64,000 nt of DNA from Elusimicrobiota bacterium (GTDB lineage: Bacteria; Elusimicrobiota; Elusimicrobia; UBA1565; JACRDR01): NCBI GenBank assembly GCA_041694815.1, contig JBGFSC010000018.1, forward strand, positions 1 through 64,000, written 5' to 3'. Positions 1,751 through 56,685 of the stretch are shown here, in pieces; position 1 is the stretch's first letter; each line of letters begins with the position of its first letter. Position numbers and translations under genes: made by a program. Under the pieces are notes generated by a model. It was not told where the DNA came from. It saw only the letters and a program-made list of their open reading frames with translations, and searched no databases.

Positions 1751-1831
1751 TCTAAAAATCTTTTATACGGTTTATCGGCGCTTCGCCTGAGACTAATGGC
1801 CTATTCGGTGGGTAGGACGAAAGGGAACCAT

Positions 1832-2623
1832 TTAAACGCTCATCCGGACCAATTGCCCGCTGCGCCGGCCCTGCTCGAGCATCCAGCCGGAGAAGGCGGC
1901 CGCCAAGGCCAGGTAAACCAAATTGATGGCCAAGGCCGCCCCGAAATGCCGCCAAGAAAAGACCGAGTTTAAGAGAAGCTCCCTCATCCCCTCCATCACC
2001 CAGGTGCTGGGCAGGAGCAAGGCGATCCGCTTAAGCCAGTCCGGATAGACGGACAACGGGTAGAAAATGGCGGAGAAGGGCTGAACCAGGAAGGGCACCC
2101 CCCAGACCAGGGCCTCGGCCGAATGGCCCCAATGTATGATTAATCCGGTCGTAAATAACCCCAGGGCCCAACCCATCAGCATCAGGTTGAGGAAAAACGG
2201 GACCAAGTAAAACCCCAGGATCGAGGGATCCAAGGCGTAAAAAAGAGCGGCGAAGCCCATCAGGAACACCCCGACGATCCCCGTCTTGATCAACCCGTAT
2301 AGGTAGGCGGAGGTGACCCATTCCCATGTCCTCAGTGGCGAGATGAGCAGGTTGACGATGTTGCGGGTCCAAAGCTCCTCCATAAAGGCGAGGCTGACCG
2401 ATTGCTGGGACCGGTATAAAATGTCCCAAAACACGAGGCCCAAGAGCAGCGCGGGTAGAAGGCGCCCGGTCGAGTCCGGCATGCGCTGCTGCAGGTAGAC
2501 GCTGAAGAATCCCCAGACCAAAAGCTCCATCAACGGCCAGAAGAAGAGCTCCATCACCCGTGCGGCGGAACGGAAATGCATCACCACGTAGCGGCTAAGC
2601 ATGGCCGATATGCGCCGCCTCAC
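1832..2623 (-). CDS. ABC-2 type transporter permease
   Basis: About six hydrophobic segments; FSAIFYPLSVYPDWL..LLP motif typical of ABC-2 permeases. Confidence 0.9.
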   Translation of the reverse strand: MRRRISAMLSRYVVMHFRSAARVMELFFWPLMELLVWGFFSVYLQQRMPDSTGRLLPALLLGLVFWDILYRSQQSVSLAFMEELWTRNIVNLLISPLRTWEWVTSAYLYGLIKTGIVGVFLMGFAALFYALDPSILGFYLVPFFLNLMLMGWALGLFTTGLIIHWGHSAEALVWGVPFLVQPFSAIFYPLSVYPDWLKRIALLLPSTWVMEGMRELLLNSVFSWRHFGAALAINLVYLALAAAFSGWMLEQGRRSGQLVRMSV

Positions 2624-3378
2624 GCGTTTTCCCCCTTCACGTCGCGGAGCTCTCCCTCCCGCGATAGTTTCAAGAACAGCTTTTCCAGGCTATCCTGGCT
2701 GAAACGCCGACGCAATTCCCCCGGCGTCCCCTCGGCTATCTTGCGCCCGCGGTGGAGGAATAAAACCCGGTCGCAGAGCCTTTCCACCTCCGCCATGTTG
2801 TGCGAGGTGTAGATCATCGACACCCGGCGCTCCTCGCGGACGCGCTGCAGCAGCGCGCGCACGCGGTCGGCCATATCCGGGTCGAGGCTCGCGGTGGGCT
2901 CGTCGAGAAATAACAGCTCGGGATCGTTGAGTAGGCTTTTGCAGAGATTAAGCCGCGTTTGTTCGCCGGAGGAAAGAGCCCCGGTGCGTACGGAGGCGAG
3001 ATGGCCTATATCGAGAAGCTCCATGAGCCCCGAAACCTTCCGCCCCGCGTCGGCGACACCGTAGAGCTCCGCGAAGATGCGCAGGTTCCGCCCGACGCTC
3101 AGATTGAAGGGAAGCTGCACGTAGGCGGAGGTGTAATTGATGCGGGGATATATCCGGTAGCGTTCCCGCTGCGGGCAGCGCCCGAGCACCGAGACCTCCC
3201 CCCTCGTCGGACGCAATATCCCCAGCAGTATGTGCAGCGCCGTCGTCTTGCCGGCGCCGTTGGGTCCCAGCAGGCCGAATATCTCCCCCTCCCCGACGGA
3301 AAAGGAAACGTCTTCTAAGGCATGCTTGCCGTCGAACTCCTTATGGAGACCTCGGGCGTCGACTTTAAATGCGCTCAA
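2620..3378 (-). CDS. ABC transporter ATP-binding protein (start probably TTG at 3378)
   Basis: Walker A GPNGAGKTT, signature LSSGE, Walker B LFLDEPT, H-loop TSH. Confidence 0.92.
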   Translation of the reverse strand: MSAFKVDARGLHKEFDGKHALEDVSFSVGEGEIFGLLGPNGAGKTTALHILLGILRPTRGEVSVLGRCPQRERYRIYPRINYTSAYVQLPFNLSVGRNLRIFAELYGVADAGRKVSGLMELLDIGHLASVRTGALSSGEQTRLNLCKSLLNDPELLFLDEPTASLDPDMADRVRALLQRVREERRVSMIYTSHNMAEVERLCDRVLFLHRGRKIAEGTPGELRRRFSQDSLEKLFLKLSREGELRDVKGENA

Positions 3379-4729
3379 AATAGCGCTCCCGCTCCCAGGA
3401 GCTGACCGTCTTCCGGAAGGCGGCCGTCTCCGCCCGGGCGGCGTGGAGGTAATGCTCGACGACATCCTCGCCAAAGGCTTCTCGTGCGGCGGCCGAGCCT
3501 TCGAAAAGCCGCGTCGCTTCCTCTAGGGAGCCGGGCACCTGCTCGGCCTTGGACTCGTACGCGTTGCCTTCCAAAGCCTTGGGCGGCTGTAATCCCTTCT
3601 CGATCCCATAAAGGCCGGCGGCGATGGTGGCCGCGAAGGCCAGGTAAGGATTGGCGTCGGCGCCCGGGATCCGATTCTCGATCCGGTAAGATTCCTCCTC
3701 TCCGACGATGCGGAACCCGCAGGTGCGATTGTCCCGCGCCCAGGCGACCCGGGTAGGAGCGAAGGTCCCGCTCTGGTACCTTTTATAGGAGTTGATCGTG
3801 GGCGCGAAAAATAAGGAGAACTCGCGGCAGAGCCTCATCTGCCCCGCCAGAAAATTGCGAAACAACGAGCTCGGGGCCCCTTTCGCCCGATCCCAGAACA
3901 GCGCCCTGCGGCCGGCCCGATCCCATAGGCTCGAGTGCAAATGGAAGCTGGATCCCGCCAAGGCGCCATCGAATTTGGCCATGAAGGTGAGCGAAGCTCC
4001 CTGGGACATGGCGATCTCCTTGGCGCCGTGCTTGTAAAGCGTATGCCGATCGGCCATTTCGAGCGCCTCGGCATAGCCGAGATTAATCTCATGCTGCGCG
4101 GGGCCCCATTCGCCCTTCGACGCCTCCACCGGGACGCCCGCTCCCTCCATGCCCCGGCGTATCGCGCCGACGACCGGCTCCACCCGGGTTCCTTGGAGCA
4201 TGTGATAATCCTCGATGTACCAGCCGTGATGCTTAAGGCCGCGATAGCCTTTTTCCTTAGCCGATTCGTAGGATTCCGAGAACAGGTAGAATTCCAGTTC
4301 CGAGGCCGTCTTCACCTGAAAGCCCTTTTGCGCTGCGCGAGTGATCTGCCGCTTAAGCACAGCCCTCGGGGAGACCGCGACCGGAGCCCCTTTTTCGTCT
4401 TCGAGATCGCAGATGATAAGGGCGCTTTTCTCGAGCCAGGGCGGCACGCGTATCGTCGAGAAGTCCGGGAGAAGATGAAAGTCCTGGTATCCCTTCTCCC
4501 AGCTCGTCAACTTGAATCCGGGAACCGGGTCCATCTCCATGTCGACAGTCAGGAGATAGGCGCAGGCATGCACGCCGTGGGATGCGGCGCTTTCTAGGAA
4601 AAAACGCCCGGTCAGCCGCTTGCCCATCCATCGGCCCTGCATGTCCGGGAAAACGAGCAATACCGTATCGATCTCGCCCCGCCGGATGGCTGCCTTGAGT
4701 TCATTGAGCGACGGCCTTGTTTTTGCCAT
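3365..4729 (-). CDS. Glutamine synthetase family protein (gamma-glutamyl-amine ligase, PuuA/GlnA2-like)
   Basis: Motifs SELEFYL, EWGPAQHEINL, FMAK..GSSFHLHSSL, DNRT..R and RIENRIPGADANPY; C-terminal SSWERERYFERI. Confidence 0.9.
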   Translation of the reverse strand: MAKTRPSLNELKAAIRRGEIDTVLLVFPDMQGRWMGKRLTGRFFLESAASHGVHACAYLLTVDMEMDPVPGFKLTSWEKGYQDFHLLPDFSTIRVPPWLEKSALIICDLEDEKGAPVAVSPRAVLKRQITRAAQKGFQVKTASELEFYLFSESYESAKEKGYRGLKHHGWYIEDYHMLQGTRVEPVVGAIRRGMEGAGVPVEASKGEWGPAQHEINLGYAEALEMADRHTLYKHGAKEIAMSQGASLTFMAKFDGALAGSSFHLHSSLWDRAGRRALFWDRAKGAPSSLFRNFLAGQMRLCREFSLFFAPTINSYKRYQSGTFAPTRVAWARDNRTCGFRIVGEEESYRIENRIPGADANPYLAFAATIAAGLYGIEKGLQPPKALEGNAYESKAEQVPGSLEEATRLFEGSAAAREAFGEDVVEHYLHAARAETAAFRKTVSSWERERYFERI

Positions 4730-4852
4730 GCGGCGATTATAGACAATCACCTGAGGCGGCGCAAGAAAGTTACTTAATAGCACTTAATAATAATTAACAA
4801 TACTAATAAGTAAAGTATAGTATTATACAACTATATATGGACGATATACGCT

Positions 4853-4868
4853 GTTTTCACGTGAAAAT
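4853..4868. promoter_or_regulatory. parS-like site 1 (GTTTTCACGTGAAAAT)
   Basis: Near-perfect 16-bp palindrome sharing the TTTCACGTGAAA core of canonical parS, upstream of parA. Confidence 0.85.
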
Positions 4869-4871
4869 AGA

Positions 4872-4900
4872 TTGACAAGTTACATATGGCAACTTATAAT
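4872..4900 (+). promoter_or_regulatory. Sigma70 promoter for parAB
   Basis: Exact TTGACA (4872-4877), 17-bp spacer, TATAAT (4895-4900). Confidence 0.85.
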
Positions 4901-4942
4901 CATCCCCATGAACAAGCTTTTACGCGCATCGGCAGCTCGGGG

Positions 4943-4958
4943 GTTTTCACGTGAAAAC
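4943..4958. promoter_or_regulatory. parS-like site 2 (GTTTTCACGTGAAAAC)
   Basis: Perfect 16-bp palindrome with the parS core, just upstream of parA. Confidence 0.88.
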
Positions 4959-4973
4959 TAGGTGGATAATATT

Positions 4974-5792
4974 ATGACAGAAATAATAGCCATAGCCAAT
5001 CAAAAAGGCGGGGTAGGCAAAACAACTACGTCCATTAACTTCGCGGCAGCTCTTGCCTGTCATGGACAAGAAACACTTTTGATAGATATGGACCCTCAAG
5101 GCAACACTACATCTGGCCTAGGATTCGATAAAAAAAATATAGAGCCTTCAATATATCCTGTATTGCTCCAACAAATGCCAATAGAAAAGACAATTAAAGA
5201 GACATCTATTGAATATTTAGACTTAATTTGTGCAAATACTGGTCTTATTGGCGCAGAAGTAGAACTAGTATCTGCAATGGCCAGGGAATCTCGATTAAAA
5301 CAAGCAATTGCTCCTATTGCAAACATTTATAGATTTATTATTATAGATTGTCCTCCTTCACTTGGTCTTTTAACCTTAAATGCACTAACGGCCGCTCATA
5401 GAGCTATTATTCCTATCCAGTGCGAGTATTACGCCTTGGAGGGGTTGGCTCATTTTATGGATACAGTGAATAAGATTCGAGCGGCCGTGAATCCAGGCCT
5501 CAGGATAGAGGGGGGTGTCCTAACTATGTTTGATGCGAGGGTTACCCTAGCCAATCAGGTTAAAACCGAGATTGAACGGCATTTTGGCGATTCATTTTTT
5601 AAAACCACCATTCCCAGGAATATACGTTTAGCGGAAGCTCCTAGCTTCGGCCAGTCGATCTTGCAATACGACCCAAAATCGAAAGGGGGGGAAGCCTATA
5701 TGGGCCTCGCCGAGGAATTCCTTCTGCGCCGCGGCTGGCAGCCCGCACCGCAGCCTCCGGCGGAACCTTCGCCAACGATGATCGCCGCATAG
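4974..5792 (+). CDS. parA: Chromosome partitioning ATPase ParA/Soj (alternative GTG start at 4962)
   Basis: Deviant Walker A NQKGGVGKTT, DMDPQGN, IDCPPSLG, IPRNIRLAEAPSFG. Confidence 0.96.
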   Translation: MTEIIAIANQKGGVGKTTTSINFAAALACHGQETLLIDMDPQGNTTSGLGFDKKNIEPSIYPVLLQQMPIEKTIKETSIEYLDLICANTGLIGAEVELVSAMARESRLKQAIAPIANIYRFIIIDCPPSLGLLTLNALTAAHRAIIPIQCEYYALEGLAHFMDTVNKIRAAVNPGLRIEGGVLTMFDARVTLANQVKTEIERHFGDSFFKTTIPRNIRLAEAPSFGQSILQYDPKSKGGEAYMGLAEEFLLRRGWQPAPQPPAEPSPTMIAA

Positions 5793-5802
5793 GAGAAAAA
5801 CC

Positions 5803-8635: not shown

Positions 8636-9253
8636 TTACCACTTCTTCAGGGCTTCCTGCCTTTCGATTGGATCCGTGTTCTGTATGAAGCGTCGGATTT
8701 CGTCGCCATCCATCGTCTTCTTCTCAAGAAGAACTAGCGCCAGATGCTTGAGCATGTCCTTTTTGAGGGAAAGAATACCCATGGCCTGGGTCTCGGCGTC
8801 TTTAAGTAACTGCCCGATGGCCGCGTCATCTTTTTTGTCGCCGGCCAGCTGTCGAGCGATCTCCGTTGCCGCGGCCATATCGCTATGGCCGCCGGTGCTG
8901 ATCTCGCCGTAAATCACCATCTCGGCGGCGCGTCCGGCCAAGCTCACCTGCAACTGCCGGCGCAGCATTTCGGGGTCGACATGGAGCTTAGGAACATCCT
9001 GCGTGACGCTTCCAAGGGTTTTCCCGTCCGGAATAATGGTAGCCCGAAGCACCGGATAGGCATGGGCATAGGTCGCAACCATCGCCGCGCCAGCCACGTA
9101 CACCGCGGTCCGTTTCTCCTCGGCGGCCTTTTCTTGCCGGTAGGCGGCCATATCCTCCCGATATTTCGTCATAAGCGCATACCCAACCTGGCTTCGCGCC
9201 GGAACGGCGAAGAAACAAGAGAAAAGTCCTAACACCATTGCCTTTCTATTCAT
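8636..9253 (-). CDS. Signal-peptide-bearing peptidase M41 (FtsH protease)-like domain lacking HEXXH
   Basis: EEKRTAVYVAGAAMVA matches the FtsH TAYHEAGHA region; LAGRAAE, ISTGGHSD..AT.IAR and LA..LLEKKTMDGDEI are FtsH-like. Confidence 0.75.
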   Translation of the reverse strand: MNRKAMVLGLFSCFFAVPARSQVGYALMTKYREDMAAYRQEKAAEEKRTAVYVAGAAMVATYAHAYPVLRATIIPDGKTLGSVTQDVPKLHVDPEMLRRQLQVSLAGRAAEMVIYGEISTGGHSDMAAATEIARQLAGDKKDDAAIGQLLKDAETQAMGILSLKKDMLKHLALVLLEKKTMDGDEIRRFIQNTDPIERQEALKKW

Positions 9254-9392
9254 GTCCTAATCCCCCTTAAATCAAAGCTTATAGGTTGAGCTTCGTTTTC
9301 TACAGGGTCAAAAGACCCATGCTGCCCAAGTCTTTAGGCCTAGAGCAACCAGGTCTTGTGATCCAGGATGCATGCTGCGATCCGACCCACAG

Positions 9393-10160
9393 TCATAGCT
9401 TAAACCGCTTTTCCGCCGTTACGTCATCTTTATTCGTTTCCGACTGTTCGGCGTCGGCCGGTTTGGACATTTCGGGTCTAACGGCAGAACTTTCAAGGTA
9501 TTCCCTAAGCTCCTGTTCCTGATCCTTGGATAACTTAACGTCAGTGATAACGCGATCCTTCAACAAGCCATCGATGGGCTGCCTAAATTTAGAGAAGTTG
9601 AGTCTGAGCCACATCGGAGGTATTAAAAAAAAGAGCAGTCCAAACATGATGCCGCCGAATAATCCGTAAAAAATGGAGTCGATCCTCCCGCCGCCCTGAT
9701 CGCGGAGAGTTCGATAAAAAATAAGCACGGATGGAATGCTTATCGCCCCGCCGACTCCCAGCAGCACTGGCATTGATGCCGCGCCAAGCAATACCCACGG
9801 CACAAGCCCTAGAAGGATAGCGCCCAATACCGATAACTGCATAAATTCAGTGCTCGAGACGAATTTCCGCAACAGGGCTTTTACCTTGCTTTGCTGTATT
9901 TTAGGCTGTGGCATGAAGCTGCGGTTTGGACCGAACAAAGAAGCGGCTGGGGGGCGCCTCTGCTCATTGACGGGAACACCTGCGGAGCTATTAAAAATGG
10001 CAAATAGCTCGGCCGCAGATTCGGTCGCGGCCAAGCGGCTATCCGCCGGCGCCGACACGTTTTCCGAAAACTGGACATCGCTCCGATGTTTCGCGGCTTC
10101 CGGCGTTTCGCAGCGAGCCGGCGCCGCGATAAAAGCGGCGGTAACAAGCACCCTATGCAT
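9393..10160 (-). CDS. Hypothetical membrane/exported protein
   Basis: Signal-like N-terminus and three central hydrophobic segments; lower GC. Confidence 0.6.
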   Translation of the reverse strand: MHRVLVTAAFIAAPARCETPEAAKHRSDVQFSENVSAPADSRLAATESAAELFAIFNSSAGVPVNEQRRPPAASLFGPNRSFMPQPKIQQSKVKALLRKFVSSTEFMQLSVLGAILLGLVPWVLLGAASMPVLLGVGGAISIPSVLIFYRTLRDQGGGRIDSIFYGLFGGIMFGLLFFLIPPMWLRLNFSKFRQPIDGLLKDRVITDVKLSKDQEQELREYLESSAVRPEMSKPADAEQSETNKDDVTAEKRFKL

Positions 10161-10339
10161 TCGCGTTCCAGCATAATTGTATCGTCGCCAGCCGGATTAG
10201 CCAGGGACGCAGGTCCCAAGCCCTGTCTATAGAAAGGGCCTATCCGTCCTAGGCCCTTAGACACGCTTACTTGCGCGCCAGGGCTACAAGGTCACAAATT
10301 GCAACCTTAAACCAAACGCATGGTTGCTACGATGGACGC

Positions 10340-11186: not shown

Positions 11187-11480
11187 GTGCAGACACCGAA
11201 GACGCCTGAATTTGACGAATGGCTCGACGGGTTAAGCGCCTATCGGCAAGGTCTTGTCGAGTCGAGATTAAAACGGATTCAAGACTTTAACCATTTCGGT
11301 TGGGTCGGCATGCTCGGCGACGGGCTCTTTGAGCTAAAGTGGAAAAATGGTCTCAGGGTTTATTTTGGATACGTTGAAATGAATGGGCGCGCGGCGTTGG
11401 TTCTTTTGGGGGGAGAGAAACATGGGCAAAACCGTGATATCGCGAAGGCGCGGGGTATCTTGGCTCGGGAAACCGCGTAA
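11187..11480 (+). CDS. RelE/ParE-superfamily addiction-module toxin
   Basis: TPEFDEWL..RLKRI..GDGLFELKW..GLRVYF..LLGGEK..Q.RDI.KA pattern. Confidence 0.88.
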   Translation: MQTPKTPEFDEWLDGLSAYRQGLVESRLKRIQDFNHFGWVGMLGDGLFELKWKNGLRVYFGYVEMNGRAALVLLGGEKHGQNRDIAKARGILARETA

Positions 11481-11775
11481 GCTGCGGCCAGGGGCAACCG
11501 TTAAAGATCATGATCCCTCTGTTCGGCTTGGAGATCCTGTCTTTATTAGAAAAGCGATCTTCGAAGCGCTCGCTGAAGGAGACTACGAGGCGGTAACGGA
11601 CATTTATCGGGCGCACCTTCGAGTCCTTAATCGCTCTAGAGGGGCTAAGGTGATGGGGGTATCAAGAGGATATTACCATAAGCTGCTCAAGCCATCCGCC
11701 GAACCGTCGCTGCCGACATTTGTGAAATTCATGCATCTACTTAACGTAGAACAGCGTGGCGTAGCGAGGGTATAA
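11422..11775 (+). CDS. Addiction-module antitoxin (HTH)
   Basis: Lies downstream of and overlaps the toxin; C-terminal AKVMGVSRGYYHKLL...PSL.TF HTH pattern. Start is uncertain. Confidence 0.75.
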   Translation: MGKTVISRRRGVSWLGKPRKLRPGATVKDHDPSVRLGDPVFIRKAIFEALAEGDYEAVTDIYRAHLRVLNRSRGAKVMGVSRGYYHKLLKPSAEPSLPTFVKFMHLLNVEQRGVARV

Positions 11776-11776
11776 G

Positions 11777-12943
11777 TTACGGCGGGGAAAGCGCGGTTCC
11801 CAACAAATCCGACTCGATCGCGGCTTTCTTGAGGAACGGCTTGACGAAATCCGCGAATTCCCAAAGGTCCTTCGCCTTGAGGGCCTGCTTGTAAATGGAG
11901 AGGGCTCCCGCGCGATCGCCCATCACATCCTTGACCTGCGCCAGGCGGATCAGCGAGAACAAGGCCCAGCGATTGGGCACCTTGGGCTGCAGTGCCTCGG
12001 CTCCCCGAGCGAAGGCTTCGGCGGCCTTAGGCCAATCCCGGGTCAGGAAATAGGCGGTGCCCAATCCCACGTAGCCGCGGGGCTCGTAGCGCGCGTCGTA
12101 GAACGGCTTGCGCTCGCGTATGGCCTTAAGATACGCCTGGGCGCTCTGGAGCGCCTCCTGTGCCAGGCGGTTCTCGTAGAGATAGATCATCTCGACGAAG
12201 TGGAACAGGGAATTCTTGGGGAATTTCTGGCGGATCTCCCGGATCAGACGCAACCCTTCCTTCGGGTTGTAGACCTTGGCGTTGCGATCGGCGTAGGCCT
12301 CGACCAAGATCAGCTTCGCGGCGGTGGCGGTGTGCTCTCCCTTTTCCGCCGCGATCTTGAGCCGCGCCATGCCGCGGAAAGTGTCGCCGCGGATGGCCAC
12401 GAGCTTCCCTAGGACCTTGATGACCCCGGGCAGCGTATCGGTATAATAATCCCACATGCCCAGGCCCATATTGACGTCGTAGAGTTTGGGATCGAGCTTC
12501 TCCGCCTTCTTAATGAGGCTTAGGGCCTTGGTCCCGTCCCAATAGGCCCTCACCCAGCGATGCATGGTCAGCGCCAGCCGGCTGCGCATGCCGTACATCC
12601 CGCCCAAGCACAAATACCCCTCCGCGTCCGTCGGGTGATCCTTGATCCAACGATGCCCCTGCGGTATGGCCTCGGCGATCAGCTTCTCGAACTCGTCGTG
12701 GGTTTTGATGTCGGAGCCTTCCTGCTGGTATTCGAAGCGGGCCCAGGAGGCGGTGGCCAGCCCGAAGTAGCCGTAGGGGATGCCCGGGTATTCCTGAAGC
12801 AGGGCGCGAAAGGTCTTTTCGCAATCGTCGAAATCCATCAGGTAGATGTCATCGATGCCGCGCTGGATGCGGCGGCTGATCTCCTCCGGCTTCGCGAAGG
12901 CCGGCAGCGACAAGGAGAAGCTTAAGAGAAGGGCCAGTGTCAC
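11777..12943 (-). CDS. Exported TPR-repeat protein
   Basis: Signal peptide (..LPAFA) and multiple TPR-like helices; overlaps the serS stop. Confidence 0.8.
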   Translation of the reverse strand: MTLALLLSFSLSLPAFAKPEEISRRIQRGIDDIYLMDFDDCEKTFRALLQEYPGIPYGYFGLATASWARFEYQQEGSDIKTHDEFEKLIAEAIPQGHRWIKDHPTDAEGYLCLGGMYGMRSRLALTMHRWVRAYWDGTKALSLIKKAEKLDPKLYDVNMGLGMWDYYTDTLPGVIKVLGKLVAIRGDTFRGMARLKIAAEKGEHTATAAKLILVEAYADRNAKVYNPKEGLRLIREIRQKFPKNSLFHFVEMIYLYENRLAQEALQSAQAYLKAIRERKPFYDARYEPRGYVGLGTAYFLTRDWPKAAEAFARGAEALQPKVPNRWALFSLIRLAQVKDVMGDRAGALSIYKQALKAKDLWEFADFVKPFLKKAAIESDLLGTALSPP

Positions 12944-20152: not shown

Positions 20153-21258
20153 ACCCTCATTGGCATCACGACATAACGGTAGTCCGCGTCCCCCGCCGAT
20201 TCTATCAGCGTCGGATTGACCGGAGCGGTGAAGCCTAAAATCACCTTGTCGGCGTCGAAGGCCTTAAGCCCTTCTAGGATGAACTGCGGATTGAAGGCGA
20301 TGGCAAACTCCTCTCCCTTATATTCCGCAGGCAACTCGTCGTCAAACTCAAGGTTTTGGCTAGAGGCGTGCACGTGCAAGACACCTGGTCTGAGCGTGTA
20401 CTTTACGGAACCGCCGCGATCCGTGGCGCACAAGGAAGCCCGTTTCGTGATCCCCCAAAGAGCCTTGGCGTCCATAGGCACCTGGATGTCCTTTTTTACC
20501 GGAATAACTTGTTCGTAATTCGGGAAGCTACCCTCAACCAGGCGGGAAAGCAGCGTCGTCGTCTTGAATTGGAAGGTGATTTGGTTCTCGGTCACGGATA
20601 CGGCAACCTTATCTTCTTCGCCCTTCACCTCCTGAGATAGAATGCGCAGTAGTTCCGCCAATATCTTGGTCGGGACGATGACACGGAACTCCTTGTCCTT
20701 CGGGAGGCAGGCCCTGCGTATGACGGCCAGTCGGCGGCCGTCGGTCGCGACAATCTCGAGCACACCACGCGATCCCACCCAAAAGGCGCCATTGAGCACA
20801 TGCCGGGTCTCGTCGGAAGAGGCCGAAAATAAGGTCTTGCGGATCATCTCCTCAAGTGACTTGCCTGGAAGGCTGAACGCATTAGACGGGTTGAGTTCCG
20901 GCAGCACCGGGTATTCGGATTTAGGGGCACCGATGATGCTAAAGCGCGAGCGTCCGCTTTTTAGGTGGACCTTTCCTCCGGGCTCAACGCTTAAGTCGAT
21001 GTCGTGGTCGTCCTGGAGGGTATGGATGATGTCGGAGAATTTCTTGGCGGGTATCGTGATGCTGCCGCCCGATTCGATCTCGGCGGGAATATAATGCTTG
21101 ACTCCCATCTCCAGGTCGGTGGACACCAATTTCAGCCTTGAATTCTCGGTTTCCACAAGAAAATTCAACAGGATCGGCAAAGTGGTCCGGGAGGAAAGGG
21201 CTGATTGGATCGTTTGAACCCCACGAGAAAGATCCGCCTTACTGCAATGTATTTTCAT
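20149..21258 (-). CDS. dnaN: DNA polymerase III beta sliding clamp
   Basis: TLPIL, STDLE, VATDGRRL, SRLVEGSFPNY, C-terminal VVMPMR. Confidence 0.97.
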   Translation of the reverse strand: MKIHCSKADLSRGVQTIQSALSSRTTLPILLNFLVETENSRLKLVSTDLEMGVKHYIPAEIESGGSITIPAKKFSDIIHTLQDDHDIDLSVEPGGKVHLKSGRSRFSIIGAPKSEYPVLPELNPSNAFSLPGKSLEEMIRKTLFSASSDETRHVLNGAFWVGSRGVLEIVATDGRRLAVIRRACLPKDKEFRVIVPTKILAELLRILSQEVKGEEDKVAVSVTENQITFQFKTTTLLSRLVEGSFPNYEQVIPVKKDIQVPMDAKALWGITKRASLCATDRGGSVKYTLRPGVLHVHASSQNLEFDDELPAEYKGEEFAIAFNPQFILEGLKAFDADKVILGFTAPVNPTLIESAGDADYRYVVMPMRV

Positions 21259-26236: not shown

Positions 26237-28330
26237 ATGGTCCATCTATTGCTTGGTATCCATAATCATCAACCCGTCGGCAATTTCGACGAGGTGCTTG
26301 AAAAGGCGTTCCAATCGTCCTATCGGCCTTTCCTTGATACCCTGGAACGCCATCCGGGCATCCGCCTTGGCGTTCATTTTTCCGGAGTACTGTACGAATG
26401 GCTGGCGGCGAGGCATCCGGATTTACTCAACCGCCTCGCGGAGTTCGCGCGGCAGGGCCGGGTGGAGCTGCTGGGGGGAGGCTTTTACGAACCCATCATC
26501 GCTTCTCTTCCGGAAAAGGACCAACGTGGACAGATCGAAGCGATGCGGCACTACCTCAAGCAGCGTTTCGGCATCGAGGCCACGGGCTTTTGGCTAGCCG
26601 AAAGGGTCTGGGAGCCGCAGCTGCCAAAGGTCCTCGCCCGCTCGGGCGTCGGCTATACGGTGGTCGACGATACGCATTTCCTCTCCGTCGGCTTTTCCGA
26701 GTCGGAGCTCAAGGGCTATTTCTTAACGGAGGCGGAAGGGAAGGAGTTGAGGGTGTTCCCTATTTCCCAAAGGCTGCGGTACATGATCCCCTACTCGTCA
26801 CCGGAGGAGGTTATTGAATACTTGAGGGAGGCCGACCGGGCCCAACCGGAAGGGTCTCCCGCCTTGGTGATGGCTGACGACGGGGAAAAGTTCGGCCTAT
26901 GGCCGGATACGTTTGAGAGGGTGTATCAGCAGGGATGGTTGGAACGCTTCTTTTCCCTGATCGAGGAAAACGCATCCTGGCTGCGTAGTTCCACGTTCTC
27001 GGAATACCTGCGCCAACACCCGCCGCTTGGATGGGCTTATCTGCCGACGACCTCCTATGCCGAGTTGTCGGAATGGGCCTTGGGTCCGGAATCCAGCGGG
27101 GAATTAAAGAGGGTGCTCCATGACGCTTCGCCCGCCTCGAGGCGATTTTTACGCGGCGGTTATTTCCGTAATTTCTTAACTAAATATCCTGAGGCCAACC
27201 GGCTCTACCGTAAAATGCTACGGGTCAGCGAAAAGGTGCACGCGCTGGAGTCGCCACGCCTGCGGGGGAAAGTGGCCCCAGAGGCCATCCGCCAAGCCTT
27301 GGGGCATCTCTGGCGAGGGCAGTGCAATTGCGCCTATTGGCACGGTGTTTTCGGAGGTCTCTATTTGCCGCACCTGCGCAACGCCGTCTATGAGAACCTT
27401 CTCAAGGCCGAGCGCGTGGTTTCCCGCGCGCAGAATGAGGCCGGACGGAAGCCGCAGGCATTTTCCGTATCATTCGAGGATTGGGACGCCGATGGGGAAC
27501 CGGAGACGCTCGTGGAGGACGAGAATGCGAACTGGTATTTTGCCCCGAACAAGGGGGCCGGTTTGTGGGAGTGGGATTTGAAGGAGGTAGGGGTTAACGC
27601 GTGCGGCGTCGTCAGTCGGAGGCGGGAAGCATACCATGAGCGCATCGGCGAGGCGGTTTCGCATTCGTCGGGTGGCGCCCGCACCATTCACGAGGGAACG
27701 CGGGCCAAGCAGGGCAATTTGGGCGCCGAGCTGTTTTACGACTGGCACGGGCGCATGTCATTGCTCGACCATTTCCTGCATCCCGATACCCGACGCCAGG
27801 ACTTCGCCTCGGCGCGCTACGGCGAGCAGGGCGATTTCGTGCTAGGCCGGTACCGGTCCGAAAAGCCGTCGTGCAAAGATGGCCGTTTCCGGCTGGCTTT
27901 CGAGAGGGACGGGACCGTATGGGCGCACAGCCAGGCCCTGGCCATCCGCGTGCGCAAGGAGGTCGAGCTGAATCCCGACGGGTCCTGGCGCTGCCTCTAT
28001 ACCTTGTATAATCGGGGCTCGAGCGAGGCCCATTTGTGGTTTGGATCGGAATTGGCATTGGCTTTCTCCACGCCGCAGATTTGCCCCGCCGCGGAGGAAT
28101 CCGGGGTCGAGCTCAAGAGCTACCGAGACGCGCCTTTAAAGCTTTCGCTGCGCTTGGCGATCGATTCCCCGTCCGATCTCTGGTCTTTTCCTTTGTATAC
28201 GATCTCGCAATCGGAGGAGGGCTTTGAAAGGACGTATCAAGGCAGCGTCGTGCTGCTCCACCGCCGGTGGGTCCTCGGGCCTGGTCAGTCACAGGACTGG
28301 GGCTTCGGCGTGGAGGCCGGGCCCCTATGA
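26237..28330 (+). CDS. GH57 alpha-amylase / 4-alpha-glucanotransferase
   Basis: HNHQPVGN, GGGFYEPI, WLAERVWEP (nucleophile), DDGEKFGLWP (acid/base), QCNCAYWHGVFGGLYLPHLR. Confidence 0.93.
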   Translation: MVHLLLGIHNHQPVGNFDEVLEKAFQSSYRPFLDTLERHPGIRLGVHFSGVLYEWLAARHPDLLNRLAEFARQGRVELLGGGFYEPIIASLPEKDQRGQIEAMRHYLKQRFGIEATGFWLAERVWEPQLPKVLARSGVGYTVVDDTHFLSVGFSESELKGYFLTEAEGKELRVFPISQRLRYMIPYSSPEEVIEYLREADRAQPEGSPALVMADDGEKFGLWPDTFERVYQQGWLERFFSLIEENASWLRSSTFSEYLRQHPPLGWAYLPTTSYAELSEWALGPESSGELKRVLHDASPASRRFLRGGYFRNFLTKYPEANRLYRKMLRVSEKVHALESPRLRGKVAPEAIRQALGHLWRGQCNCAYWHGVFGGLYLPHLRNAVYENLLKAERVVSRAQNEAGRKPQAFSVSFEDWDADGEPETLVEDENANWYFAPNKGAGLWEWDLKEVGVNACGVVSRRREAYHERIGEAVSHSSGGARTIHEGTRAKQGNLGAELFYDWHGRMSLLDHFLHPDTRRQDFASARYGEQGDFVLGRYRSEKPSCKDGRFRLAFERDGTVWAHSQALAIRVRKEVELNPDGSWRCLYTLYNRGSSEAHLWFGSELALAFSTPQICPAAEESGVELKSYRDAPLKLSLRLAIDSPSDLWSFPLYTISQSEEGFERTYQGSVVLLHRRWVLGPGQSQDWGFGVEAGPL

Positions 28331-29983: not shown

Positions 29984-30132
29984 ACGAACGGCAATTTTTA
30001 CGCGCTTTGAGCGCGTGGCTCGGCGCAAACGACCGCGCCGAGCTCGGAATACTCGCGAGAAACCTCGAACTTCGTCGCGCGAAGCGCGACGAAGTCACGC
30101 GCCCGAGGCGCGTAAAAGCCGCCGTTTTCCAA
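29981..30132. repeat. Composite REP/REPIN-like element: two inverted ~36-bp units enclosing two hairpins
   Basis: 29987-30020 and 30093-30126 are inverted copies (27/34 identical). Inner hairpins lie at 30018-30043 and 30069-30095. A third unit is at 56559-56594. Confidence 0.75.
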
Positions 30133-36946: not shown

Positions 36947-36955
36947 TTTTTCATT

Positions 36956-36993
36956 GGTGCCAGGCATCCACTTTCTATACTTTGTTGACTTTC
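36956..36993 (+). repeat. Solo arm of the GGTGCCAGGCATCCACTTTCTA repeat family
   Basis: 34/37 identical to the reverse complement of the right arm of the 62831-62916 palindrome. Confidence 0.85.
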
Positions 36994-37003
36994 TCCACAT
37001 CCC

Positions 37004-37093
37004 AGGCCATTTGACCTAGAAAAATTAGGCCCAAAGACTAGAAAAGCTTGGGCCATTGGCCTCTGTGCAAAGAAGGCTTAAGGTACCTACAAT
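37004..37093 (+). promoter_or_regulatory. Three tandem RGGNC-N4-GNCCY boxes plus -10 TACAAT
   Basis: AGGCC-ATTT-GACCT 37004, AGGCC-CAAA-GACTA 37027, TGGGC-CATT-GGCCT 37049, TACAAT 37088. Confidence 0.65.
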
Positions 37094-37114: not shown

Positions 37115-37906
37115 ATGAATAGATGGATAGCTATATTCTTCCTGGGAACAGCCATTTCAAGCTACAGCGAATCGCCGTCGAGCGACGAGAGCTTCGCTCG
37201 GTCGGCGCAGGAGCTCAGCGATAAAGCCAAGCGTTCCCGCCGATTAAGCCGCAAGGACATCGAGGAGGTGATCGCCCGGGAGATGCCCGGCGCGCGGATC
37301 GTCGAGCGCTGCCGTGTCCCGGCGAATCTTCGCGAGCATTCCGTTCCCGCCGGGGATATCCAGACAGTCAGAAAGCGCCTTATGAACGGCATCAACAAGG
37401 GAACCTGCAAGTCTATTATCGAGGCGATGGGTGTTCTTAATGATCTTTCAGATCATGAGCAATTAGTGTTCGGCCGTTGCGATAGTTGTGAATTCATCGT
37501 TCGCAAGCCTCTCGGTGAAGCGATCGAAATCCTCCTCAAGGGAGAGGAAGACGCCGTGTTCGAGGCCCGCGCTAAGTTAATGCAGGCGCTGGTCAATCTT
37601 GTCGGTTTTAAAGGCGAGGCCCGGCACGGTCGGTTTAAGGTCGTCGATGGCCGGCTCGTGACGCTGACGCCGGAGCAGGAAAAGGAAGAGTTGGCTCGGC
37701 GCCTGGAAGGCACCGTTCAGTCGCCTCCGATCGAGCACATGCAGGCCAGCTTGCTGATTCGCGAGCGCTATCCGGGCGCGAAAATCTTAGAGTACCACGT
37801 AGAGGGTTATGCCAAGGAATTGTCGGGGACCGTCGTTATCGACGATAGCGGTGTAAAGAGAACCGTATTCATCGAAAAGCAGCGCATCGTTCGTTCCGTT
37901 CCGTAA
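37115..37906 (+). CDS. Exported hypothetical protein
   Basis: GGGGA SD; signal peptide MNRWIAIFFLGTAISSYS; no family recognised. Confidence 0.7.
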   Translation: MNRWIAIFFLGTAISSYSESPSSDESFARSAQELSDKAKRSRRLSRKDIEEVIAREMPGARIVERCRVPANLREHSVPAGDIQTVRKRLMNGINKGTCKSIIEAMGVLNDLSDHEQLVFGRCDSCEFIVRKPLGEAIEILLKGEEDAVFEARAKLMQALVNLVGFKGEARHGRFKVVDGRLVTLTPEQEKEELARRLEGTVQSPPIEHMQASLLIRERYPGAKILEYHVEGYAKELSGTVVIDDSGVKRTVFIEKQRIVRSVP

Positions 37907-50365: not shown

Positions 50366-50372
50366 ATGGCCG

Positions 50373-51699: not shown

Positions 51700-51739
51700 C
51701 TCCCCAATGTATCTAGCTTCTCGGGGAAAATCTAGAGCG

Positions 51740-52957: not shown

Positions 52958-53031
52958 CCGGGAGATATCTCGTTTATAGCAGCCGGGAGGATTTGGCGCC
53001 AGGCGTTTATAAATAATGCATAATCGAGCAG

Positions 53032-54075
53032 GTGAACCAGCATCGTTCAGGCGCGCGGTTTTTGGCGGCCTGCCGGCGCGAACGCGTCGACGCGACGCCG
53101 GTATGGTTCATGCGCCAGGCGGGGCGTTACCTGCCCGAGTACCGCCGCATCCGCGAGAAGAACACGCTGCTCGAGATGTGCGAGCGCCCCGAGCTTGCCG
53201 CCGAGGTGACGTTGCAGCCGCTGAGGCGCTTCGATCTCGACGCGGCGATACTCTTCGCCGACATACTGCTACCCGCTCGGGCGATGGGCGTCAAGCTGGA
53301 GTTCAAGAAGGGCGAGGGCCCCGTGCTTACCCCGCCGGTGCGCGGCGCCGCGGCGATAGGGCGCCTGCGCGAGTTCGAGCCGCGCGAGGAACTCTCCTTC
53401 GTTCTCGAGGCGCTGCGGCTCATCCGCCGCGAATTGGACAAGCCGGGGGCCCCGGCGCTCATCGGCTTCGCCGGAGCACCCTTTACCGTGGCCTCCTACC
53501 TCGTCGAGGGAGGCCCCTCCGACCATTACCTGCGCACCAAGGGCCTGATGCACGGCGAGCCCAGGCTTTGGGGAAAACTCATGGGAAAGCTCTCGCGCGT
53601 CACGATCGCCTACCTCTCGGCCCAGGTCGAGGCGGGAGCCCAGGCCGTGCAGCTCTTCGACAGTTGGGCTGGGGCGCTTTCCCCCGAGGATTACCGGCGG
53701 TTCGTCCTGCCGCATTCGAGGGCGGTGATATCCGCCTTGAAAAGGAAAGGGATTCCCGTGATCCATTTCGGAACGGGCAACTCCGGGTTCATCGAGGATT
53801 TCTCCGCCGGCGCGGACGTAGTCGGGATCGATTGGCGCCTGCCGCTGGATGCAGCCTGGAGACGGCTGGGACCTGTCGCCGTACAGGGCAACCTGGACCC
53901 CGCGCTGCTATTTGCCCCCAAGGACGAGCTCAAGGCGGCGGTGCGGGGCGTTTTGCGCCGCGCGAGAGGAAGGCGAGGCCATATCTTCAACCTCGGGCAT
54001 GGGATATTGCCCGGCACTCCTCCGGAAAGCGTCCGCGCCGTGGCGGATTGGGTGCACGGGATGGACGAACGATGA
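53032..54075 (+). CDS. hemE: Uroporphyrinogen decarboxylase
   Basis: PVWFMRQAGRYLPEY, AAILFADIL, QLFDSW, QGNLDP, IFNLGHGI. Confidence 0.97.
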   Translation: MNQHRSGARFLAACRRERVDATPVWFMRQAGRYLPEYRRIREKNTLLEMCERPELAAEVTLQPLRRFDLDAAILFADILLPARAMGVKLEFKKGEGPVLTPPVRGAAAIGRLREFEPREELSFVLEALRLIRRELDKPGAPALIGFAGAPFTVASYLVEGGPSDHYLRTKGLMHGEPRLWGKLMGKLSRVTIAYLSAQVEAGAQAVQLFDSWAGALSPEDYRRFVLPHSRAVISALKRKGIPVIHFGTGNSGFIEDFSAGADVVGIDWRLPLDAAWRRLGPVAVQGNLDPALLFAPKDELKAAVRGVLRRARGRRGHIFNLGHGILPGTPPESVRAVADWVHGMDER

Positions 54076-55001
54076 ACGCGGACACCGCGGTGCTGCTCAT
54101 GGCCTACGGGGCGGCCTCTAGCCTCGAGGACATCCCCGCCTACCTGGAGGATATACGGGGAGGAAGGCCTGCGGACGACAAGCTCGTCGCGGAGGTGCGC
54201 GAGCGCTACCGCAGGATCGGGGGCTCGCCTCTTCTAGACATCACGCGCGCGCAGGCCTCCGCCCTGCAGCGCAAGCTAGGCTGCAGGGTGTACGTCGGCA
54301 TGCGGCACTCCCCGCCCACCATACTCGAGGCGGCGCGCAAGATGAAGCAGGAGGGAGTCCGGCAAGTCGTGGCCATGCCGTTGACGCCCTATTTCTCGGC
54401 GTTAAGCTCGGGAGCCTATTTCGCCTCGCTCGATCGCGCCGCGCGCGAGCTCGGCGCGGGGTGGAGGACGGCCAAGGTCGAGTCCTGGCATCTGCAGCCC
54501 TCGCTGATCGAGGCCTTCGGCCTGAAGATCCAGGAGGCGCTTCGCCGCATCCCGCAGTCGGAACGGGCCAACGTGGCGGTGCTATTTACGGCGCACAGCT
54601 TGCCCAGGCGCATACTCAAGGACAACGACCCCTATCCGCGGCAGCTTTCCGAGACGGTTGCCGCCGTCGCCCGTCGCGCGGGGCTTTCCGATTGGAGATT
54701 CGCCTACCAAAGCCAGGGTCGGACTCCCGAGCCGTGGCTCGGGCCAGAAGCCGGCGAGATCCTCGAACAGATTGCCTCCGAGGGGCGAAAAGGCGTGGTC
54801 TTGGCTCCTATCGGCTTCATCAGCGACCATATGGAAACGCTTTACGACGACGATATCCTCTACCGCGGCAAGGCCGAGGAGCTGGGCCTGCGCTACGTGC
54901 GAGCGGCCTCGCTCAACGACGATCCGGGCCTTGTCGCGGCAATGGCGGCGGCTATTTTGGAGAAGATGAAGGGAACTTTCGCGCGGGCTCGATCGTACTA
55001 G
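54072..55001 (+). CDS. hemH: Ferrochelatase (probably coproporphyrin-type)
   Basis: LLMAYG, RYRRIGGSPL, FTAHSLP, YQSQG..PWLGP, GFISDHMETLYD. Confidence 0.95.
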   Translation: MNADTAVLLMAYGAASSLEDIPAYLEDIRGGRPADDKLVAEVRERYRRIGGSPLLDITRAQASALQRKLGCRVYVGMRHSPPTILEAARKMKQEGVRQVVAMPLTPYFSALSSGAYFASLDRAARELGAGWRTAKVESWHLQPSLIEAFGLKIQEALRRIPQSERANVAVLFTAHSLPRRILKDNDPYPRQLSETVAAVARRAGLSDWRFAYQSQGRTPEPWLGPEAGEILEQIASEGRKGVVLAPIGFISDHMETLYDDDILYRGKAEELGLRYVRAASLNDDPGLVAAMAAAILEKMKGTFARARSY

Positions 55002-55028
55002 TGGCGGCCCCAAGGGCCGGGAGGTACG

Positions 55029-55145
55029 ATGATCACCCGCTGCGATATCTGTAATGAGAGAAGGATCGTTCGAGCTTCGGACCAATACCGTTTCTGCCTC
55101 TACTGCAAGAGGCGTTCCTCGGAGCGGTCCATCCGCTGGCGTTAA
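55029..55145 (+). CDS. 38-aa CxxC-x14-CxxC small protein (not in ORF track)
   Basis: GGGAGGT SD; MITRCDICNERRIVRASDQYRFCLYCKRRSSERSIRWR*; stop lies 3 nt before the hemY ATG. Confidence 0.6.
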   Translation: MITRCDICNERRIVRASDQYRFCLYCKRRSSERSIRWR

Positions 55146-55148
55146 CTC

Positions 55149-56528
55149 ATGAGGCGCGTCGTCGTGGTCGGGGGAGGCGTCGCTGGGCTTTCCGCCGGCT
55201 ACCGCCTGCTCCGGCTGCGCGAGGAGAGGCGCCTTGATTTGGAGGTCGTCGTCTTGGAGGCCCTGGGTCGCGCCGGAGGCAAGATACTCAGCGAGCGCGC
55301 CGGCGGCGTCCTATTCGAGGGAGGCCCGGACTCCTTCGTCACAGCGAAGCCCGAGGCCCTGACGCTCATCCGGGAGCTTGGCTTGGGGCCGCGGCTGCTG
55401 ACCGCCGACCGTAAGCATCCGGACGTATACGTATTCGCGCGTGGGAAGCTCCGAAGGCTTCCCGAGGGCCTTATGCTGATGGCGCCCAGTCGCTGGCTGC
55501 CGTTTTTGGCGTCGGATATACTGACCTGGCGGGGAAAATTGAGGGTGGCGATCGAGCCATGGATTCCTCGCGGGCAGGCGCGCGACGAGTCTCTGGCGGA
55601 TTTCACCCGGCGCCGCCTGGGCGCCGAGGCCCTGGAAATACTGGTCGATCCCGTCATGGCCGGCATCTACGCCGGCGACCCGGAGCGGCTGAGCCTGCGC
55701 AGCAGCTTCCCCCAAATCGCCGAGATGGAGGCAAAATCCGGCAGCGTCACCCTCGCCATGCGCCGAGCCGCCCCCAAGCTTCCGATGCCTAAGGGACAGA
55801 CGATGTTCATGAGCTTGGCCGGCGGGCTCGAGGAGTTGTCTTGCGCCCTCGCGGAAAAGATAGGCCCAGCCCTCCGGCTGAATTCGCCGGTATCGTCGAT
55901 CATGATGTCGGGCGGGCGCTACCGCATCGTTTGCGGCCAGCAGCAGCCCGTCGAGGCCGACGCCATGATCCTCGCCTCCCCGGCGGACAAGACGGCCTCC
56001 TTCGTGGAGGGGTTCGACGCGGAGTTGGCCTGCGAGCTCCGGCGGATCCCCTTCGCCTCCTCGGCCACTCTCTCGCTGCTCTACGATGCCGAGGCGGCGA
56101 AAGGCCTGCCTCCGGGGTTCGGCTTCGTCGTCGCGCGCGGCGAGGGCAAGAGCATCAGCGCCGCGACCTTCACCTCATGGAAATTCCCGGCGAGGACTCC
56201 TCCCGATCGCTTCCTGATCCGTTGCTTTTTGGGAGGAGCCGGGAGAGAGGAGGCGGCGTTGCGCGCGGACGCCGAACTGGTTAAGGCCGCCAAGGCCGAC
56301 CTTCGGGAGATCATCGGCCTTCGCGCCGAAGCGCTTTCGCATCGGCTCTACCGCTGGACTCGCGCCAATCCCCAGTACAACGTCGGACACGCCGACTTGA
56401 TCGGCCGCATCGAGCGGCGGCTCGAGCGATACCCGCAAGCGGTGCTCGCTGGAGCGTCCTATTACGGCGTGGGCATCCCGGATTGCATCCGCTCCGGATT
56501 TTCGGCGGCTGAAAAAGTCCTTTCTTAA
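55149..56528 (+). CDS. hemY: HemY-type proto/coproporphyrinogen oxidase
   Basis: VVGGGVAGL, GGKI, EGGPDSF, GIYAGDP..LS, SWKFP.R, PQYNVGH, GVGIPDCI. Confidence 0.94.
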   Translation: MRRVVVVGGGVAGLSAGYRLLRLREERRLDLEVVVLEALGRAGGKILSERAGGVLFEGGPDSFVTAKPEALTLIRELGLGPRLLTADRKHPDVYVFARGKLRRLPEGLMLMAPSRWLPFLASDILTWRGKLRVAIEPWIPRGQARDESLADFTRRRLGAEALEILVDPVMAGIYAGDPERLSLRSSFPQIAEMEAKSGSVTLAMRRAAPKLPMPKGQTMFMSLAGGLEELSCALAEKIGPALRLNSPVSSIMMSGGRYRIVCGQQQPVEADAMILASPADKTASFVEGFDAELACELRRIPFASSATLSLLYDAEAAKGLPPGFGFVVARGEGKSISAATFTSWKFPARTPPDRFLIRCFLGGAGREEAALRADAELVKAAKADLREIIGLRAEALSHRLYRWTRANPQYNVGHADLIGRIERRLERYPQAVLAGASYYGVGIPDCIRSGFSAAEKVLS

Positions 56529-56558
56529 CGAACAGCGCTAGCTTGGGAATAGACATTT

Positions 56559-56594
56559 ACGCGCCCGAGGCGCGTAAAAACTGTCGTTTATTCA
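56559..56594 (-). repeat. Third copy of the ACGCGC-hairpin REP-like unit
   Basis: Reverse complement TGAATAAACGACAGTTTTTACGCGCCTCGGGCGCGT, 29/36 identical to 29981-30016. Confidence 0.8.
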
Positions 56595-56685
56595 GATTAC
56601 TACAGAACCCAGGTCCAAGGGCCCAGCAATACTTAGGCCCCGCGGGCCTGTTTCTATTTACGACACCCGAATTACAATAACGCCC

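Follow-up and report, generated by a model that had tools for sequence, protein, structure and literature searches.

The first 64,000 nucleotides of contig JBGFSC010000018.1 from an Elusimicrobiota bacterium (assembly GCA_041694815.1), referred to here as the window, contain mostly housekeeping genes (parAB, gyrAB, dnaAN, genes of the phosphotransferase system or PTS, and lepA), among which five genes for exported proteins are interspersed. An earlier note on this DNA had proposed that these five genes form a regulon, their promoters carrying tandem boxes of the form RGGNC-N4-GNCCY that resemble the boxes of the mycobacterial regulator DosR and lie at a fixed distance from a -10 hexamer. The window is positions 1 to 64,000 of contig C18 of the source genome (G000; 2.77 Mb, 97.8% complete), whose DnaA finds its best matches among Elusimicrobia MAGs (65% and below). 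In this genome, 2695 genes were called with our own dicodon gene caller, and boxes were scored with a matrix built by our own expectation-maximization procedure on the intergenic DNA of this genome. The 14-mers listed in the note were all present, and among the window's 22 non-coding stretches of at least 60 bp only the five named promoters scored 10 or more (10.9 to 15.5, with the next best at 5.8). The pattern RGGNC-N4-GNCCY matched exactly at 9305, 10204, 37004, and 56611, whereas the remaining listed sites were inexact, and 7 of the 12 exact matches in the window are intragenic and were missing from that account.

The gene at 899..1750 (minus strand) encodes a degenerate WD40-like exported protein of 283 amino acids, which has no Pfam or NCBIfam match, resembles a WD40 paralogue at C38:19429 (E=4e-6), and ends in the tail A[QE]ERF[KR]x. 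Its proximal box (1789..1802, score 15.5) lies 21 bp from TATAAA (1762..1767, minus strand), the least canonical of the five -10-like hexamers; a second box is unsupported, since the half-site claimed at 1814 scored 0.4. The gene at 8636..9253 (minus strand) encodes an exported stand-alone FtsH-type M41 domain (PF01434, E=2e-22) and is preceded by a triple box with a 23-bp period (9305..9364; boxes at 9305, 9328, and 9351 scoring 15.5, 15.2, and 7.3), which is 23 bp from the -10-like hexamer TAAGCT (9276..9281, minus strand). The third gene (9393..10160, minus strand) encodes an exported orphan that contains three hydrophobic helices rich in Gly, carries an AEKRFKL tail, and gave no Pfam or NCBIfam match and no usable Atlas match; its promoter region (10204..10264) combines a proximal box at 10204 (10.0) with a box in the third position at 10251 (10.9), 47 bp apart and with a degenerate middle position, and TACAAT (10176..10181, minus strand) follows after 22 bp. 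On the plus strand, a triple box with a 23-bp period (37004..37063; boxes at 37004, 37027, and 37050 scoring 13.6, 10.0, and 12.4) and, 24 bp on, TACAAT (37088..37093) precede the gene of an exported orphan of 263 amino acids (37115..37906), for which no usable Atlas match was obtained and which retrieved itself alone among 2133 candidates. The fifth gene (56686..59187, plus strand) encodes an exported met-zincin metalloprotease (DUF5117 plus PF16313) and has a distal strong box at 56611 (15.0) and a proximal weak box at 56635 (7.0), together spanning 56611..56649; its TACAAT (56673..56678, plus strand) lies 7 bp 5' of the ATG, which predicts a leaderless transcript. An orthologue of the met-zincin in the related genome G028 (54% identity) stands under the same kind of promoter. 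Four of the gaps between box and -10 given earlier (21, 23, 22, and 23 bp) held, while the fourth gene's is 24 rather than 25 bp, and two registers shifted: 37050 is better than 37049, and 56635 (7.0) is better than 56636 (3.3). Two products had been called protease related, and the zinc motif HExxHxxGxxH of the met-zincin is indeed intact. The M41 domain lacks the HExxH zinc motif because YVAGA replaces the YHEAGH of FtsH in an alignment to the genome's FtsH-like protein; it is probably a non-catalytic protease-fold protein and could be a partner or a decoy for proteases of the FtsH type.

Across the genome, the box consensus is RGGHCYWWRGDCCY, refined in the matrix to T-R-G-G-H-C-Y-W-W-R-G-D-C-C-Y-A. 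The exact pattern RGGNC-N4-GNCCY occurs 547 times, with 117 of these occurrences in non-coding DNA, which makes up 6.6% of the genome. Intergenic stretches of at least 30 bp contain 112 exact matches, where 30 dinucleotide shuffles gave 21.9±5.7 (maximum 36). The enrichment is confined to the 4-bp spacer, other spacers from 0 to 10 bp giving 16 to 49 matches. The matrix counts are partly circular because the DNA used for training is also the DNA counted, whereas these exact-consensus counts are free of that circularity. Spacers between convergent genes hold 1 of 174 strong non-coding sites, although they account for 10% of non-coding DNA. Distances between paired sites peak at 22 to 25 bp (95 pairs) and at 46 to 47 bp (32 pairs), and a minor overlap of sites at 7 to 8 bp arises because each half-site is itself nearly palindromic. 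For 42 of the 205 sites scoring at least 11, a -10 hexamer starts 29 to 31 bp from the box center, where about 1 per offset was expected, and echoes of this distance appear one and two periods on (30 sites at 52 to 55 bp and 14 at 76 to 77 bp). We considered whether the pattern could stem from a GC-rich base composition or from a repetitive extragenic palindromic (REP) or miniature inverted-repeat transposable element, since GGNCC words are common at 61 to 63% GC (the window has 169 matches with one mismatch), REP-like repeats do exist in this genome, and a REP element in another genome, G043, contains a matching 14-mer. An artefact of this kind is refuted by the shuffle, -10-distance, and cross-genome tests: the excess over shuffles is fivefold and specific to spacer and direction, the distance to the -10 is fixed, the flanks of the boxes vary, and the same design is found in the AT-rich promoters of small genomes. 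The five window promoters thus belong to a genuine set of about a hundred; the proposed regulon stands but is some 20 times larger than five genes and, as described below, is common to most of its class. Among the REP-like elements, a palindrome ACGCG-N7-CGCGT occurs at 30000-30126 and 56559-56575 of the window and has 78 matches in the genome, often as inverted pairs; another dyad, TGACT-N14-AGTCA, has about 24 intergenic copies. Intragenic sites that score strongly on the matrix (15.5, 12.1, and 14.4) lie at 12515-12535 in a TPR gene and at 20259-20272 in dnaN.

Class II activator-dependent promoters have an activator site near -41.5 to -42.5, a weak -35 element, and a good -10 element. The promoters found here have this anatomy for sigma70, with the site center 30±1 bp from a good -10. 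The proximal box spans approximately -49 to -36, with its center at -42.5, and the -35 slot follows directly and usually reads AGG, ATG, or TTG; the box, which the earlier note had put at the -35 position, therefore abuts the -35 slot and does not replace it. The slot is weak, TTGA being present in 3 of 82 box promoters versus 113 of 744 others (p=0.002). We defined a target as a gene with a box scoring at least 7 and a -10 at 29 to 31 bp, which gave 102 genes in the source genome. An upstream second box at 21 to 25 or 44 to 48 bp accompanies 75 of them, and 43 of the 102 appear leaderless, compared to 184 of 976 other first genes; the ATGs in these cases lie 5 to 9 bp past the -10, consistent with a predicted start 12 bp past the beginning of the -10. 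For comparison, DevR targets have closely packed sites, the proximal one overlapping the -35 element, in the part of PMC3029386 that treats them. The secA gene (C51:14010-14200) has two strong upstream boxes (14.9 and 18.3) at an off-standard distance and was left out of the target count because no -10 lies 30 bp from them; by eye, these boxes are preceded by a stretch of about 45 bp resembling positions 36955-37000 of the window, before the 37004 boxes, and DnaA-box-like words stand beside them.

The targets are predominantly genes for exported proteins, as had been proposed for the five. With our own signal-peptide heuristic, which overcalls and flags 27% of all genes, 80 of 102 targets had signal-like N termini, compared to 251 of 976 other first genes (p=1e-25). 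Orphans are enriched as well, 51 of 97 targets lacking a Pfam family versus 18 of 81 neighboring controls (p=5e-5; 97 of the 102 were covered in one scan and three window genes separately, and absence of a family was tallied by eye). Those that could be annotated include WD40 propellers, four FGE-like proteins, HEAT, TPR, and Kelch proteins, peptidases (M13, M16, S8, S9, trypsin-like, and met-zincin), other hydrolases (an SLT transglycosylase, endonuclease I, and an amylase), and signal-peptide-bearing FtsH, Lon, and AAA_5 ATPase proteins. About a dozen small targets, including the product of 9393-10160, share by eye a signal peptide, a flexible linker, a basic patch, and Gly-rich hydrophobic helices; a count of glycine motifs came to 17 of 51 versus 50 of 327. 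The C-terminal tail [AS][EDQV][EKQ][RV]F[KR][LIFV] occurs in 46 proteins of about 11 unrelated families in the source genome, where 0.05 were expected, and is carried by two of the five window products (899-1750 and 9393-10160). Genes with this tail are linked to box-led units (33 of 46 versus 549 of 2649 others), a count that takes in divergent partners and long runs, overstates the regulon, and was used for the tail only. The form AEERF[KR]L is private to this genome, with 39 DNA-pattern matches versus 0 to 2 in each of 40 relatives. Eleven tailed WD40 genes form a tandem run at C38:140775-154345. An N-terminal F[DG]x tag following the signal peptide was rejected as a general sorting signal, as it showed no enrichment (12 of 80 versus 47 of 560). 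Small toxin-antitoxin-like pairs adjoin many box-led genes (window 11187-11775; C34:37312, C52:48435, C8:6112, and C11:6481), one identified as a Phd antitoxin by Pfam and the others judged by eye, which suggests that the targets lie in variable islands. Within the window, a gene for a GH57 4-alpha-glucanotransferase (26237-28330) stands amid a mannose-type PTS operon.

The earlier note had placed the regulator of these promoters outside the window, and the genome contains a single match to PF00196, the LuxR-type helix-turn-helix, in a NarL-family response regulator of 226 amino acids at C27:50865-51545 (PF00072, E=2e-29; PF00196, E=6e-19); it reached the cutoff of no named NCBIfam equivalog. 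In its recognition helix, KTVKN, residues K186, K189, and N190 align to K179, K182, and N183 of DevR, the residues given as base contacts in the relevant part of PMC4082495, and KT[VI]KNHLN was present in 30 of 30 regulator orthologues examined. The Streptomyces regulator OsdR binds Dev boxes with the consensus AGGGCCGATCGGCCCT, according to the section of PMC5069765 concerned, and this consensus scored 12.8 bits on our matrix, on which the 99.9th percentile of intergenic 16-mers is 8.4; together with the 23- to 24-bp period, this bears out the description of the boxes as tandem and DosR-like. The box is likely the binding site of this regulator, and the position of the proximal site makes it highly likely that the regulator would activate rather than repress. 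Binding of the box by some other protein, either a different activator or a repressor or silencer of lower-GC island genes with which the NarL protein merely shares a clade, appears improbable. The GC content at third codon positions is indeed lower in targets (0.72 versus 0.80), in two incomplete genomes the motif was found but the regulator was not, and the inventory of transcription factors in the source genome covered the LuxR type. The box nonetheless resembles the OsdR/DevR site, the DevR contact residues are present in the sole protein of LuxR type, the other LuxR protein known from family f4 has a different helix (LNTVHVHRN) and does not occur in the source genome, and a fixed -42.5 position with a weak -35 fits activation and not silencing. 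At the order level the regulator was present in 39 of 41 genomes (70 to 96% identical), and at E<=1e-45 it was found in 63 of 68 genomes of the class and 2 of 83 others. In families f2 and f3 (G006-G040), the majority of genomes have two or three close paralogues of it, one in the Tad pilus locus and one elsewhere.

A dormancy or hypoxia regulon of the DosR type, or an envelope-stress regulon of the LiaR/VraR type, would be suggested by the best solved relatives of the regulator (VraR/LiaR, E=1e-39, then DevR, E=3e-29) and by a box and tandem layout like those of Dev boxes (as far as PMC3029386 covers them), but is very improbable. Neither of the two genes for universal stress proteins (USP) in the source genome has an upstream box, and no USP, HSP20, or nitrate-reductase family was found among the 97 targets scanned. 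Furthermore, the genome encodes no HisKA_3 kinase (PF07730), and no box scoring above 9.5 precedes any of 30 regulator genes, which gives no sign of autoregulation.

The distribution of the promoter was examined using the pattern GGNCNWWNGNCYY-N22-24-TAHNMT, compared with a reversed control. All 40 order-level relatives were above the control (1092 versus 154 matches), as were 61 of the 63 class genomes with the regulator (1205 versus 218), whereas the five class genomes without it gave 9 matches versus 15 in the control. The excess includes 46 genomes of family f4 (1.2 to 2.6 Mb), and families f6, f9, and f10 showed none. In 83 genomes of other classes there was no excess of the strict pattern (132 versus 349), variant boxes not having been searched for. 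The box-plus-(-10) design is thus common to most of the class Elusimicrobia. In the closed genome G104, 24 of 28 pattern matches lead signal-peptide genes, and 23 of 25 box-led open reading frames lack a Pfam family in their first 500 residues; the corresponding fractions leading signal-peptide genes were 22 of 30 in G028 (30 of 47 matches examined) and 19 of 29 in G121 (30 of 41 matches examined). Targets in the latter two genomes include SLT, amidase, subtilase, papain, clostripain, M48, phospholipase D, and nuclease proteins, and one locus of G028 (L313, contig C14) encodes an adenylate kinase that has a signal peptide and a long linker of Pro and Ala and whose box-led gene is leaderless. 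The promoter was kept at orthologues of five genes of the source genome: the met-zincin, SLT transglycosylase (in both G028 and G121), amylase, HIT, and subtilase genes. In G043, a genome of another class, the repeated AGGGCTAAAGCCCT was rejected as a box because 6 of 7 copies examined were a REP-like element, which has the form GTAGGGCAGGGCTTTAGCCCTG...GCCCTAC and occurs in dozens of places (L226-L231); one true-looking box in that genome (L232) lies 5' of a pilin-like gene.

The regulator gene lies in a cluster encoding two pilins of the Flp type, TadE, RcpC, TadB, TadC, a short secretin, and an ATPase in which TadZ and TadA are fused. The cluster also specifies a HAMP protein, two receivers, a kinase of the dCache-HAMP type, and a hybrid of receiver and kinase, after which come TadE-like genes and one resembling ftsH, so that the Tad core (Flp, TadE, RcpC, secretin, TadZ/TadA, TadB, and TadC) is present in the source genome. 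The fusion protein has 775 amino acids and joins a ParA/MinD-like TadZ to the TadA ATPase. Gene order in this cluster is kept in G104, G006, G088, and G151, and in 54 of 65 genomes at most 20 kb separates the regulator from the TadZ-TadA ATPase; in 8 the two are on different contigs. Among the class families lacking the regulator, f6 and f9 also lack the TadZ-TadA ATPase and f10 has a partial match. Since the regulator sits within a class-conserved Tad cluster, its likeliest input would be a signal relayed from the Tad machine, which we consider somewhat more probable than any input of other origin. The two adjoining kinases (dCache-HAMP-HisKA and receiver-HisKA), encoded at C27:47738 and C27:49663, would be the natural phosphate donors, as no HisKA_3 kinase is encoded. 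No site of at least 7 bits lies upstream of the flp genes of the source genome, those of other genomes having been only glanced at, and this box-free promoter would place the regulator downstream of the pilus. Two PorV/PorQ-family barrels and an FlgD-Ig protein of 1140 amino acids are encoded immediately upstream of flp (C27:28388-36417), an arrangement largely kept in G104, G006, and G151.

Taken together, these results make it probable that the NarL regulator from the Tad locus switches on a secretome of about 100 units aimed at other cells or their remains. A contact or surface signal would pass through the Tad-locus phosphorelay to yield phosphorylated NarL dimers, which may bind cooperatively to two or three boxes 23 to 24 bp apart, at -42.5, -65.5, and -89. 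The proximal dimer would touch the -35 slot and recruit sigma70 RNA polymerase where a promoter combines a good -10 with a poor -35, and about 100 scattered and often leaderless units for Sec-exported proteins would be switched on. The predicted output comprises hydrolases of murein, protein, lipid, nucleic acid, and glucan, Gly-rich membrane proteins, and fast-evolving orphans. Whether the target is living is less certain: bacterial prey or a host, suggested by the Tad linkage, the murein hydrolases, and the exported cytoplasm-type ATPases, is a plausible target but one that we put forward tentatively. More speculative again is the full proposal that the class, including small gut-type genomes, consists of facultative contact predators or parasites that exploit other microbes, in which the Tad pilus with its TadZA fusion, similar to that of Bdellovibrio, would sense the target, the kinases would phosphorylate the NarL activator, and a hundred exported attack proteins would be made, some of which (FtsH, Lon, AAA ATPase, adenylate kinase, and membrane-inserting Gly-rich proteins) may act inside the target. 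If this is true, the promoter box is a sequence tag that lists the effector set of each genome.

The main rival accepts the same regulator and activation and supposes a scavenging regulon like that of DegU, in which starvation or cell density induces exoenzymes for use on dead biomass and polymers and the Tad neighborhood reflects adhesion or mere gene order. We regard this as unlikely, though it has real support in that annotatable targets are mostly hydrolases, homologues of the regulator are named DegU automatically in some sources, a search for FHIPEP in five genomes found no injection system, and a cultured member grows axenically. It accounts poorly for the half of the source genome's targets (and the 23 of 25 in G104) without an enzyme family, and for the exported FtsH, Lon, AAA_5 ATPase, and G028 adenylate kinase, which need nucleotides that open water lacks. 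Neither an M41 domain without its zinc motif nor a Gly-rich membrane protein is a digestive enzyme, and Tad synteny is kept in 54 of 65 genomes.

Several observations weigh against a Tad-linked secretome directed at other cells. The link between regulator and box is a prediction from sequence, and among the DNA-binding proteins of the source genome the LuxR-type family alone was inventoried. The co-occurrence of the two falls essentially within one clade and therefore counts as one evolutionary observation, not 63. The motif is in excess in G004 (88% complete; 35 versus 4) and G001 (79% complete; 12 versus 1), in which no match to the regulator or the neighboring kinase was found, a gap that incomplete assembly might explain. 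Conversely, in the regulator-bearing G151 (0 versus 1) and G098 (5 versus 6) the strict pattern does not exceed its control; the strong boxes of both are placed another period upstream, and 12 of 13 hand-picked sites precede signal-peptide genes by eye. Homologues about 50% identical exist in G043 and G071, both of other classes, without the pattern, and the helix in G043 is also KTVKNHLN. Diverged Tad ATPases and other Tad homologues occur in classes without the regulator as well, and together with the box-free flp promoter this means that linkage is no proof of signaling. Approximately one-fifth of the 102 targets are cytoplasmic (e.g., metK, a ferritin-like protein, and antitoxins), some of which are probably chance calls or divergent partners, and our signal-peptide heuristic overcalls. 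The FHIPEP export gate of type III secretion systems was not found in the five genomes tested, and NTT-like/TLC carriers were weak and patchy (20 of 151 genomes, with strong ones in another class only), so no route of injection or delivery into another cell was found; energy parasitism is likewise unsupported, as these carriers do not track the regulator. Finally, a cultured member of the class grows axenically, without prey.

Elusimicrobia occur widely, in groundwater, sludge, and animal guts, hardly any have been cultured, and the many orphan proteins that they export lack an explanation. A class-wide promoter tag with a candidate regulator provides a global regulon for the group and picks out the co-induced exported proteins of each genome; it ties this set, half of it without a known family, to a contact pilus, brings the exported FtsH, exported Lon, and tailed WD40 proteins of the source genome under one switch, and opens the way of life of these bacteria to direct tests. 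Our literature searches found no paper on the motif or the regulator; subscription papers on Elusimicrobiaceae lay outside these searches, and absence from print is not established. The relevant parts of PMC11495043 and bioRxiv 10.1101/2023.11.21.568195 mention Elusimicrobiota in passing only.

Compared to known systems, the regulator resembles DevR/DosR of Mycobacterium tuberculosis and OsdR of Streptomyces coelicolor in being a NarL-family protein with a K-x-x-K-N recognition helix, in its nearly identical palindrome (that of OsdR being AGGGCCGATCGGCCCT), and in having several boxes packed together, the proximal of them at -35, insofar as PMC3029386 describes them. It differs in matching DevR more weakly than VraR/LiaR, in its exported-protein targets, and in the location of its gene in a Tad locus. 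Unlike the systems of the GAF-heme HisKA_3 kinases DosS, DosT, and OsdK, the source genome has no PF07730 protein, and the USP, small heat-shock, and nitrate-respiration targets and the autoregulation of the DosR regulon were not seen in it. As judged from sequence, the regulator would thus work like DosR/OsdR at the DNA, yet its regulon is not of the dormancy type. PprA-PprB of Pseudomonas aeruginosa is also a NarL/LuxR-type system linked to flp-rcp-tad genes and exported proteins, and PprB directly activates tad and cupE genes within a 35-gene regulon (PMC3510237). In contrast to PprB, which acts upstream of the pilus, the regulator described here leaves the flp promoter box-free, has about 100 scattered orphan and hydrolase genes as targets, and is conserved class-wide. 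A TadZA fusion in Bdellovibrio, called atypical, is needed for prey invasion (bioRxiv 10.64898/2026.07.08.737194), and the Kil system of Myxococcus kills on contact by means of a Tad pilus (PMC12075869). In the accessible text of both papers, a NarL activator of a secretome in the Tad locus is not described and 'Elusimicrob' occurs 0 times. The likeness to the Bdellovibrio Tad system lies in the fusion architecture; it is unlike in that no FHIPEP gate was found in five genomes. In Legionella, PmrA and CpxR are OmpR-type regulators whose effectors lack Sec signals, and DegU of Bacillus subtilis is not known to have such a fixed palindrome. Shared by DegU, PmrA/CpxR, and the candidate regulator of the Elusimicrobia is a plan in which one response regulator acts, or would act, through a box that marks many scattered genes for secreted proteins.

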